Shown here: one piece after another, positions 20,868 to 22,515 of the stretch
Layout of the letters: every line of letters begins with the position of its first letter
How positions within the stretch are numbered: the stretch's first letter is position 1
Virus record (IMG/VR): IMGVR_UViG_3300031867_000495
Coordinates: 1-26,246 of that record
DNA length: 26,246 nt
Reading direction: 5' to 3' (one strand)
Source of the DNA: a virus
Notes under the pieces: generated by a model
Databases searched by the model: none
Told to the model about the DNA's origin: nothing
The model's input: only the letters and a program-made list of their open reading frames with translations
Translations under genes and position numbers: made by a program

Positions 20868-20915
20868 ATGATATATTTTACAGCAGATTTACATATGTAG
20901 GCCAAAAATATATAA
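20868..20915 (+). pseudogene. Remnant of a duplicated 5' end of the metallophosphoesterase gene, MIYFTADLHM[TAG]AKNI-TAA, left upstream of the homing-endonuclease insertion
   Basis: It encodes the FTADLH metal-binding motif, which is found again at 21963 (MSQTFFTSDLH). Its ATG overlaps the upstream TAA (TAATATG). It ends after 15 codons. Confidence 0.4.
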
Positions 20916-20923
20916 ATATTTTA

Positions 20924-20960
20924 TTAAAATTTTTAATATATATTGATAATAAATATATAT
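20924..20960 (+). promoter_or_regulatory. Conserved promoter-like box (copy 5, most divergent) TTAAAATTTTTAATATATATTGATAATAAATATATAT, upstream of the homing endonuclease
   Basis: Motif family as above. RBS AAGGAG and ATG 20972 lie downstream. Confidence 0.4.
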
Positions 20961-20971
20961 TAAGGAGAAAT

Positions 20972-21954
20972 ATGATTATGATTTATAACGTATACAAAAT
21001 TTAGAATTTAATTAATGGAAAAGTTTATATTGGGTCTAGTCAAAATGTTTAGAAACGTTGGATTGCACATAAAAATGCTGCAAATAATCCAAATAACCCT
21101 CATTATAATTATCCTTTATATCGAGCTTTTAGAAAATATAAATTAAAAAATTTTAATTTTACTATTATTGGCACTTATAATACTAAAGAAGAGATGGAAT
21201 AGGCAGAGTATAATTATATTATAAAATATGATTCTACTAATAATTAGAAAGGGTATAATCAAACTTTATTTACAGAATGTGCGTTACGAGATCCAGATAT
21301 TATGAGAAAAATACTAGAAAAAAAATCTCAAAAATGTGCTTTAGTAAATGAAAAAGAAGAAATTATATAGATTTATCCCTCTTACCAAGAAGCCGCTAGA
21401 CAAAATAATATAACAAATGGAGCTAATCATGTCAGATTAGTGTGTAAAGGTATACAGCATTCTATTAATAACACTTTATTTTTTAGAGATTTAAATGAAA
21501 ATAATCAAGTTGTTCATTTAAGTAATAATATTCTACCCAAAAATTATAGAAATAGAGAAAAAATAGTTGCAATTTCTGCTGATAATCCAAATGAAATAAA
21601 ATATTATAATTCTATTTATGAGGCTGCTAACGAATTACAAACAGATAGAGGTTCAATTCATAGTTGTTTAAAAGGAGATACTAGACACTCTTTAGTAAAA
21701 GGTTATATTATTAGAAGAGTAGACTAGAATAATAATATAATTGAAAATAATATTAAAATTTCAGACAAACTTAAAGAGTATAATGAAAAATTTCCTTTAA
21801 TTAATGGAGAAAGACATACTAAAACTGAATGGTGCCGTATTTATAATGTAAAATGGCCTACAATTAGAAATCGTTTAAAAACGTATGATATAACTTTTGA
21901 ACAAGCATTAACAACATCAAGAGCTAAATTAAGCTCTTTTAAAAGAAGGGAGTG
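20972..21954 (+). CDS. GIY-YIG homing endonuclease with two NUMOD1-like DNA-binding motifs and a C-terminal HTH-like tail (about 327 codons). It contains 6 in-frame TAG codons (21002-21004, 21053-21055 and four more) and ends at TGA. A likely free-standing mobile HEG
   Basis: N-terminus IYKI[TAG]NLINGKVYIGSSQNV[TAG]KRWIAH is the GIY-x10-YIG ... R ... H catalytic signature with TAGs at ordinary residue positions. It has the NUMOD1-like motifs IYPSYQEAARQNNITNGANHV and SIYEAANELQTDRGSIHSCLKGDTRHSLVKGY. ORF 21440..21727 is only the TAG-free central piece. Confidence 0.7.
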
Positions 21955-21962
21955 ATTTTATT

Positions 21963-22515
21963 ATGAGTCAGACTTTTTTTACATCTGACTTACATTAGTC
22001 ATATCGGGCACGATAAAGATTTTATTTGGGAAGAAAGAGGATTTTCTTCTGTTGAAGAACATGATAAAGAAATTCTTAAAAGATGGAATGAAGTAGTTAA
22101 ACCAGAAGATATTGTTTATATCCTTGGAGACCTTGCTTTAGGACAAAATGAAAATGAGTGGGATAATATTTTTTATGATTTAAATGGGAACATATTTTTT
22201 ATTCAAGGTAATCACGATACGAATCGAAGAATATCCATTTACCAGGCAAGATATATAATGAATTATTTAGGAGCAGCATCTTTTTGGAAATATGGGAAAA
22301 AGAGTTTTTATTTATCTCATTATCCAACTTTAGTTGCTAATAAAGATGATAAAAAATTTCTTTGGAATCTTTCTGGACATACTCATTCCAAAAACAAATT
22401 TGAATATGGTCAATATCATGTTTATAATGTAGCAGTAGATGCCCATAATTGCTATCCAGTATCTATTGAAGAAATTATAAAAGATATTAAAAACTATAAT
22501 AATATACAAATGTAA
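21963..22515 (+). CDS. Calcineurin-like metallophosphoesterase. The reading frame is broken after the DLH motif by TAG at 21996-21998. The frame and motif are restored if 7 nt (TAGTCAT, 21996-22002) are skipped. This could be a programmed hop or frameshift, a pseudogene, or a sequencing error
   Basis: In frame 0, MSQTFFTSDLH is followed by TAG. In the +1 frame the sequence continues ...HIGHDKDFIWEERGF ... ILGDLALGQ ... FIQGNHD ... GHTHS, so motifs I-V of the metallophosphoesterase fold are all present. The take-off codon CAT at 21993-21995 and an identical CAT at 22000-22002 flank the skipped stretch. RBS AAGGGAG precedes the ATG. Confidence 0.5.

Follow-up and report, generated by a model that had tools for sequence, protein, structure and literature searches.

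A GIY-YIG homing endonuclease cassette with a replacement N-terminus and a candidate short ribosomal hop in a phage metallophosphoesterase gene

How could a phage enzyme gene be expressed once a homing endonuclease gene (HEG) has split it close to its start codon and left its two parts in different frames? This question is raised by IMG/VR virus record IMGVR_UViG_3300031867_000495, positions 1 to 26,246 of which (26,246 nucleotides [nt], hereafter the window) were analysed. Two copies of the N-terminus of a metallophosphoesterase gene flank a HEG open reading frame (ORF) on the plus strand (Table 1; coordinates were read from the sequence). In the upstream copy, GAT TTA CAT (20886-20894) is followed by ATG, TAG (20898-20900), and GCC AAA AAT ATA TAA. 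The downstream copy is a mini-ORF that ends in CAT followed immediately by UAG, and the body of the gene resumes after a second, identical CAT, with no start codon of its own before 22258. A preliminary description made from the letters alone had pointed to both copies, to the GIY-YIG HEG between them, and to the CAT-UAG-CAT arrangement, and every coordinate it gave agrees with the sequence. It suggested that ribosomes cross the gap by a hop or a frameshift. Comparison with related loci (designated by L numbers) leads us to conclude that the window and its sister cassettes probably use programmed short-distance peptidyl-transfer RNA (tRNA) hopping.

Skipping the 7 nt TAGTCAT was expected to restore the consensus frame, and it does: the hop product, MSQTFFTSDLH-IGHDKDF..., contains DLHIGH, and the D-x-H-x-x-H spacing of this motif is constant in 120 of 120 intact homologues. 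The joined phosphoesterase has 1577 homologues in a large protein database, the closest of which are 92 to 98% identical, are 179 amino acids (aa) long, and all start with MIYFTADLHIGHDKDF. It matches PF12850 and PHROG 547 (E = 3e-46), and it aligns gap-free from residue 1 both to PHROG 547 and to the solved phosphoesterase PDB 1xm7. The motifs DLH (residues 9 to 11), GDLA (53), GNHD (80), and GHTH (136) mark it as a calcineurin-like metallophosphoesterase; the D-x-H comes solely from the mini-ORF, and the body holds the GD, GNHD, and GHTH motifs. Against the family profile, the hop product scored 304.8 bits compared to 297.7 bits for the product of a +1 shift.

The origin of the two copies became clear from the empty-site alleles L004 to L008, HEG-less relatives of the kind that the preliminary description had proposed for alignment. 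These alleles have an intact frame, and the nearest of them, L008 (empty-site sequence ...GATTTACATATCGGGCAC...; DNA ...GATTTACATATCGGGCACGAT...), has the sequence of the window without a clean 1,108-nt insert, with zero host bases lost or gained. The insert boundaries are uncertain by 5 nt, CATAT being present at both ends. Because the empty-site allele equals the window minus the insert, the upstream copy (20868-20894, MIYFTADLH) is the native 5′ end of the host gene and the downstream copy was imported with the cassette. The proposal that insertion had duplicated the 5′ end of the gene is therefore not upheld, whereas the proposal of a homing insertion is. The flanks of the window are 97.5% and 99.3% identical to those of L008. 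Compared with the occupied locus L009, the cassette is 95.8% identical, but the flanks are only 82.5% and 91.5% identical. The insert is thus a mobile element, present in some alleles and absent from others, and better conserved than its surroundings. Gene order around the site is the same: RNA ligase, a 73-aa ORF, a 100-aa ORF, the phosphoesterase, a ∼141- to 145-aa ORF, a ∼390-aa ORF, and lysin. Homing was apparently recent, with L018 and L020 carrying an identical HEG protein beside diverged phosphoesterase bodies. The HEG matches PF01541 and PF22083 in Pfam and PHROG 7168 (homing endonuclease), and a protein search returned 116 homologues. A catalytic domain, a DNA-binding module, and polymorphic presence identify it as a GIY-YIG homing endonuclease, its cleavage activity being predicted only.

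Table 1. Features of the interrupted phosphoesterase locus in the window
Feature	Position	Strand	Remarks
Remnant mini-ORF, 16 codons	20868-20915	+	MIYFTADLHM[TAG]AKNI-stop; ATG 20868, stop TAA 20913-20915
Inserted mobile cassette, 1108 nt	20895-22002	+	Base-level comparison with empty-site alleles L004-L008
Cassette 5′ leader	20895-20971	+	Decayed copy of GHDK codons (GGCCAAAAATATATAA), AT-rich stretch, HEG Shine-Dalgarno AAGGAG
HEG ORF, 327 codons	20972-21955	+	Stop TGA; GIY-YIG/NUMOD-like (I-HmuI/NUMOD-like); Pfam, PHROG
Shine-Dalgarno of replacement N-terminus	21945-21952	+	GAAGGGAG; built from final HEG codons
Replacement N-terminus, 11 codons	21963-21995	+	MSQTFFTSDLH; cassette-borne; provides metallophosphoesterase motif I (D-x-H)
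Hairpin (predicted)	21964-21992	+	5′ arm 21964-21972 UGAGUCAGA; 11-nt loop; 3′ arm 21984-21992 UCUGACUUA (Ser-Asp-Leu codons)
Putative take-off codon CAU	21993-21995	+	His of D-L-H; GAC TTA CAT read-out
7-nt gap TAGTCAT, predicted untranslated	21996-22002	+	UAG 21996-21998, U, putative landing codon CAU 22000-22002
Phosphoesterase body	22003-22515	+	IGHDKDF...NIQM; first codon ATC, stop TAA 22513-22515; +1 frame relative to 21963

A clean insertion without loss of exon bases, with a HEG inside a gene, is also the classic arrangement of a self-splicing intron, and some homologues in databases have the label "group I intron endonuclease." Splicing would join a native exon 1 (20868 to ∼20894) to 22003, giving the junction GATTTACAT followed by ATCGGG. 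However, no intron-like Rfam match was found in the whole window at the gathering threshold or in 20800-22100 at E <= 10. Apart from the ORF, the insert has just 77 + 47 nt (124 nt), which is too little for a ribozyme core, and no boundary within CATAT gives an intron that ends in G and whose removal restores the native exon sequence. In addition, the upstream "exon" is decayed in L017 (GTG ATT TAT TTT TGA) and start-less in L018 to L023, and an intron would have no need of the Shine-Dalgarno (SD) sequence, ATG, and N-terminus that the cassette carries. An intron is, in light of these features, a very improbable explanation.

With the HEG as the search handle, protein search, look-ups of the encoding contigs, and scans that queried metagenome, viral, and genome collections with an alignment yielded 31 distinct loci in which a HEG precedes a phosphoesterase gene, the HEG identity to that of the window going down to ∼35 to 40%. 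The junctions were parsed by a single fixed rule anchored on D-x-H-x-x-H. In 29 of the 31 loci, the phosphoesterase gene is interrupted by a gap of 4, 5, 6, or 7 nt (Table 2). The gap occupies one of four positions, following the His, the residue behind it, or the second residue of the motif or, in L056, lying one residue past the motif. This means that the take-off/stop/landing layout described for the window recurs with other codons, other stops, and other gap lengths across ∼30 diverged cassettes.

Table 2. Junction types, written as last decoded codon followed by the gap, landing codon included
Gap class	Junctions	Loci
+7, window type	CAT TAGT CAT	Window, L009, L010, L017, L027
+7, other types	CAT TAGC CAT; CAT TAGC CAC; CAC TGAC CAT; GGT TAAA GGT	
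+7, near-cognate	CAT TAGC CAA; CAC TGAC TAT	
+6, in-frame	CTT TAA CTG; CTT TAA CTA; CTT TGA CTT; CAT TGA CAC; CAC TGA CAT; CAC TAA CAA; TTC TAG TTT	
+5	GGT TA GGT; ACT TAGCT	
+4	GGT TAGC; TGT TAGC; TGT TAGT; TAT TGAC	

Some regularities were apparent among these junctions. First, a stop codon opens every gap, directly 3′ of the last decoded codon, in all junction types; TAG does so in 8, TGA in 6, and TAA in 4 of the 18 types tallied. Second, skipping the gap restores D-x-H-x-x-H in all 28 rule-parsed cassettes and in L184, and in L056 it restores H-x-N-I-I. Third, for gaps of at least 5 nt, positions 1 and 2 are the same in the landing and take-off codons of 13 out of 14 types (binomial 3e-15), compared to 0 of 14 in each register slid by 1 to 3 nt. 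When L184 (TTC TAG TTT) and L056 (ACT TAGCT) are added, the match holds for 14 of 16 types. In the window, both codons are CAU and are readable by one peptidyl-tRNA. Finally, gaps of 4 nt have a landing triplet that shares bases with the stop codon and agrees with the take-off codon at positions 2 and 3, and the choice of stop tracks the take-off codon: GGU and UGU occur with UAG-Y and UAU with UGA-C. An ambiguous case is the in-frame TTC TAG TTT of L184 (3442-3505; uncultured Bacilli metagenome-assembled genome, CANPZX010000034.1), which could represent ordinary F-Q-F decoding instead of a hop if that phage reads TAG as sense.

The recurrence bears on the trivial explanation that the gap is a spurious 7-nt indel. 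A single metagenomic assembly could contain indels, and exclusion of a read error had been called for from the start. However, the same CAT-TAG-Y-CAT junction is found in the independent assemblies L009, L010, L011, L017, and L027, the identical junction coming from different samples and studies, and systematic variants occur in ∼30 more. A sequencing or assembly error is barely credible.

The frameshift half of the original suggestion fares less well than the hop. A +1 shift at CAU-UAG-U, or four-base decoding of UAGU/UAGC, would give DLH-S/X-H-IGH, the in-frame stops of sister cassettes then being passed by readthrough. Shifting stimulated by a stop codon is known (prfB), the 4-nt and 7-nt classes both amount to a net +1, and the sole base of the gap that varies, T or C, leaves a Ser codon in the +1 frame either way (AGU/AGC). 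However, re-pairing in the P site is impossible (CAU to AUU, GGU to GUU). Three mechanisms would be needed for the +4/+7, +5, and +6 gaps, whereas hopping covers all of them. The product would gain 1 or 2 residues within a motif of invariant spacing (120/120), and neither shifting nor readthrough gives a reason for the landing-codon match. As for four-base decoding, TAG-recoded phages also have gaps with UGA and UAA, so a UAG-specific tRNA is not a general solution. Programmed +1 frameshifting of the prfB type shares with these junctions an A-site stop that triggers the change of frame, but it depends on a slippery codon in the P site and on an SD located 3 nt upstream, both of which are absent from the window junction, and it cannot cover the in-frame and +5 gaps; the junction is not prfB-like. 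A +1 shift is thus quite improbable, and hopping, which accords with the recurring stop/landing-codon rule, is the part of the suggestion that we retain. The two would differ in the predicted junction peptide, ...TFFTSDLHIGHDK / MSQTFFTSDLHIGHDK for the hop and ...DLHSHIGH(DK) for the shift.

Some further candidates were rejected. Re-initiation after the stop does not apply, the resume codons (AUC, AUA, UUU, GGC, CAU, and others) not being start codons, and a two-piece split enzyme is precluded by a body without a start codon. Transcriptional slippage has no homopolymer run at the junction on which to act, and the gap did not originate by tandem duplication, as it is no copy of the preceding bases.

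The history of the cassette provides a separate line of evidence. It carries two equally old pieces of the gene, a left piece that held the GHDK codons and the right-hand N-terminus. The left piece has decayed beyond recognition (window, GGCCAAAAATATATAA; L017, GGTCAAAGATAAATAA), and its GHDK motif is decayed in all cassettes (other examples are GATCAAAGATATATAA in L010 and GGTCACATGTAAATAA in L011). The right piece, in contrast, has retained an SD, a start codon, and an invariant Asp and His in every cassette, with both GAU/GAC and CAU/CAC in use. Preservation of one piece next to decay of another of the same age argues that the replacement N-terminus is under selection. Its SD consists of the last codons of the HEG plus TGA (AAAAGAAGGGAGTGA, 21940-21965), 10 nt ahead of the ATG. 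The K-R-R-stop/AGGAGGTGA arrangement at the HEG end is common to most cassettes, and this shared design suggests that translation of the phosphoesterase is coupled to that of the HEG.

The replacement N-terminus is also predicted to fold. The window hairpin (-9.2 kcal/mol, z = -3.8) has a stem that abuts the take-off codon, compared to only -2.1 kcal/mol for the native 5′ end. The mean minimum free energy was -8.0 kcal/mol for cassettes (n = 27) and -3.1 kcal/mol for native N-termini (n = 12; Mann-Whitney p = 2.7e-6), and two uninterrupted HEG-adjacent genes have no hairpin. Across cassettes, the 3′ arm is formed by the Ser-Asp-x(-His) codons and the 5′ arm by extra N-terminal codons that native genes do not have, often including the AUG, which pairs with CAU. 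The synonymous positions covary: the third base of the Ser codon is paired as U:A in 9, A:U in 8, and C:G in 3 cases, and that of the Asp codon as U:A in 12 and C:G in 5. These hairpins were scored by folding each sequence individually with the Ser-Asp codons as the anchor; when the mini-ORFs were aligned with MAFFT, RNAalifold gave no pairs, the 11-nt and 6-nt loop geometries being misaligned. The loop starts ∼20 nt 5′ of the take-off codon, compared to 26 nt for the 5′ stem-loop of T4 gene 60, a geometry that would allow the predicted structure to form at the ribosome exit. By analogy, the hairpin probably favours forward movement by re-forming behind the ribosome; alternatively, it may gate initiation or couple it to HEG translation.

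The stop codon of the window has to be seen against the genetic code of this phage. The HEG contains six in-frame TAGs (21002, 21050, 21200, 21245, 21368, and 21725) and no other stop before its TGA. Long minus-strand ORFs have 6 to 8 in-frame TAGs each, and the plus-strand block 16025-20866 has none. Examples of ORFs that appear to read TAG as sense are 6673-11955, 11956-14592, and 14606-15355 on the minus strand and 22526-22951, 23030-24202, and 24215-25918 on the plus strand; the TAG-rich large minus-strand ORFs are probably structural or late genes. Opposite the TAGs of the window, close relatives mostly show TAG or Gln, Gln being the commonest residue. TAG is, judging from these patterns, probably a sense codon in this phage, and UAG at the junction would for that reason be no simple terminator. 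A tRNA scan of the window found no tRNA genes and hence no suppressor tRNA. Were the UAG read as Gln, the peptide would continue as MSQTFFTSDLHQSYRAR and then stop, as a TAA closes the 0 frame behind SYRAR. With UAG apparently recoded, a suppressor tRNA would compete with the hop, besides or in place of RF1. Most cassette-bearing phages are TAG-recoded, and the hop stop codon (TAG, TAA, or TGA) is independent of recoding, from which it appears that a slow A-site codon is the common requirement. A TAG also lies one codon past DLH in the native 5′-end remnant (CAT ATG TAG GCC, 20898-20900) and likewise in L009. It is probably incidental, as it is not conserved in L010 to L012.

The following sequence of events would account for these features. 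A GIY-YIG cassette homed into the 5′ end of the phage metallophosphoesterase gene and, without splicing, would supply a ribosome binding site, a start codon, and a replacement for the 11 initial codons, which end with the metal-binding D-L-H. Ribosomes would start at 21963 and arrive with peptidyl-tRNA-His on the take-off CAU and the slow UAG in the A site. The anticodon would then unpair, the mRNA would slip by 7 nt, and the same tRNA would re-pair with the second CAU. Decoding would resume at AUC 22003 to give MSQTFFTSDLH-IGHDKDF... and thus the normal enzyme. The 3′ arm of the hairpin, the Ser-Asp-Leu codons, may re-form behind the ribosome and push it forward, or the hairpin may instead gate initiation. 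Hopping itself, and whatever efficiency it has, we infer from the conserved layout of the DNA.

Several points weigh against hopping. In the 4-nt class, re-pairing is possible for only 2 of 3 bases, and the landing codons CAA in L012 to L016 and UAU in L030 are only near-cognate. The nascent chain at take-off is 9 to 17 residues long, too short for a tunnel signal of the gene 60 type, and unstimulated stop-hops in Escherichia coli are inefficient (PMC5009743). The 3′ arm of the hairpin is still inside the ribosome at take-off, which makes a driving role speculative. A suppressor tRNA acting on a sense UAG would send ribosomes into a 17-residue dead-end peptide. Every cassette sequence is metagenomic; among deposited phage genomes, no cultured phage with a cassette was found, and blastn of 19000-23000 and tblastn of the HEG found no close cultured relative. 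Lastly, although the phosphoesterase bodies are intact in 29 cassettes (ORF lengths, 160 to 221 codons), this is no proof of selection, since homing into fresh alleles was apparently recent (L018 versus L020; window versus L008).

The last point opens the way to another explanation, in which the phosphoesterase has been inactivated, the gap is an immunity scar, and the N-terminus is kept for some unrelated purpose, e.g., an RNA hairpin that controls the HEG mRNA or a stop codon that brings ribosomes to a halt. The phage may be able to do without the gene, and the hairpin could serve a purpose unrelated to decoding. However, inactivation leaves unexplained why landing and take-off codons match in 14 of 16 types and in no other register, why skipping restores the motif spacing exactly, and why the D and H encoded in the mini-ORF never change apart from synonymous substitutions while the equally old left copy has decayed. 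Furthermore, no degraded body was found in the 29 cassettes. Loss of the enzyme is, on balance, unlikely, and we continue to favour a hop that preserves it.

The gaps are strongly associated with the HEG. When loci were sampled with the phosphoesterase as the handle, 49 of 49 were uninterrupted, all of them without a HEG. With eight earlier loci included, a gap is present in 0 of 57 HEG-free genes compared to 29 of 31 HEG-adjacent ones (Fisher p = 3e-21), a contrast somewhat inflated because one of the two phosphoesterase search patterns favours uninterrupted genes. From this association we infer that the gap protects the occupied site; it would break the recognition sequence of the HEG and so shield the occupied allele from its own nuclease. 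For gene 60, the insert has been shown to protect the occupied site from MobA (Manning & Atkins, bioRxiv 10.1101/2022.08.31.505936). At L039 (∼3085) and L111 (∼3221), related HEGs lie directly upstream of uninterrupted phosphoesterase genes, which also have no hairpin. These HEGs may have another target specificity or represent an ancestral free-standing state.

The closest known parallel is T4 gene 60, whose bypass cassette with the MobA homing endonuclease was reportedly described by Bonocora et al. in 2011. The likeness to it that had been noticed in the window holds as an analogy of logic, in miniature and without homology. In both systems, a HEG cassette sits in a conserved metal-binding enzyme motif, a new start is supplied, a stop follows the take-off codon, and the gap gives self-immunity (for the phosphoesterase cassettes, presumably); the 5′ stem-loop of gene 60, proposed to drive forward movement as the mRNA exits, resembles the cassette hairpin in geometry. 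However, MobA is an HNH enzyme and its target a topoisomerase, compared to a GIY-YIG HEG and a phosphoesterase here, with no sequence homology. The gene 60 gap is 50 nt long, whereas gaps of 4 to 7 nt cannot accommodate an A-site take-off stem-loop or an internal mini-SD, and its nascent chain has 46 aa with a tunnel signal, compared to 9 to 17 aa. Gene 60 keeps the upstream gene fragment as a subunit, whereas the phosphoesterase cassettes discard theirs, and the hosts of the latter are, unlike that of gene 60, mostly TAG-recoded phages. With target, HEG class, gap length, and nascent chain all different, the phosphoesterase cassettes are analogues of the gene 60/MobA system and not members of it.

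A second parallel is provided by synthetic stop-hops in E. coli (Weiss et al. 1987), in which matched codons around a stop, e.g., CUU UAG CUA, gave +5 and +6 hops (PMC5009743). Natural in-frame stop-hopping was not known according to the same review (PMC5009743). The CTT TAA CTA, CTT TGA CTT, and GGT TA GGT junctions of the cassettes are literal natural counterparts of these constructs; the constructs were engineered and of low efficiency, whereas the cassette layout is evolutionarily conserved and has a dedicated hairpin. In Magnusiomyces capitatus mitochondria, many short coding inserts (byps) are bypassed in translation (Lang et al. 2014; PMC5009743). The byps share with the cassettes a tolerated two-of-three match between take-off and landing codons and an unused or slow A-site codon. 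They differ in their length of 27 to 55 nt, relaxed mitochondrial decoding, occurrence in many genes, and lack of a HEG link. Finally, MobE in nrdA of phage Aeh1 is a free-standing HEG that splits a gene without splicing (10.1101/2022.08.31.505936). There too, a HEG lies inside an ORF whose function is kept through new translation signals, with no intron or intein. In nrdA both halves are made and assembled, whereas here the 9-codon upstream fragment is replaced and the frame would be rejoined in translation.

The family would be the first natural one of short "stop-hops." To our knowledge, work on programmed bypassing has for decades been based almost wholly on T4 gene 60 and the yeast mitochondrial byps. 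If ribosomes cross these gaps, ∼20 natural junction variants with four gap lengths, three stops, six take-off codons, and two hairpin geometries would be available as a ready mutational series for the rules of take-off, sliding, and landing and for mRNA folding behind the ribosome. The cassettes would also add to introns/inteins and split subunits a third means by which a HEG can reside harmlessly in a gene; at present, gene callers truncate or miss such interrupted genes. A more far-reaching proposal is that the cassettes are a naturally maintained family of +4/+5/+6/+7 stop-hops, driven by the cassette 5′ hairpin, with which GIY-YIG homing endonucleases immunise their site while sparing the host gene. 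In TAG-recoded phages, the UAG hop would moreover tie phosphoesterase synthesis to the balance of RF1 and the phage suppressor tRNA and so act as a temporal switch. We put this forward only tentatively, and temporal control through competition at UAG is speculation. A literature search of limited coverage found no published description of this cassette or stop-hop system.

In viral contigs, the exact junction gave no match and a single-protein HEG query gave nothing, so that alignment-based search was needed there. When all fetched loci were scanned generically for a short SD-led ORF, a stop, and, within 9 nt, a long ORF that lacks a start, each known case was recovered over a background of ∼12% (159/1333), with no convincing case in another gene.

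A few minor observations were made along the way. A second hairpin lies within the HEG 3′ end at 21919-21938 (AAGAGCT/AGCTCTT, -8.2 kcal/mol, z = -3.9) and is followed by UUUUAAAAG. It is preserved by compensated changes (AACAGC/GTTGTT in L011 and AAAGAGC/GCTCTTT in L012) and could be a site of termination, attenuation, or processing. In L010, a second GIY-YIG gene (6360-6978) is located directly past the gyrB/Toprim gene, from which it appears that phages of this kind hold several HEGs. Lastly, an ORF of ∼833 aa at 16061-18559 of the window has orthologues in relatives that match the Pfam domain MVP_shoulder (major vault protein shoulder domain), which is unusual in a phage.

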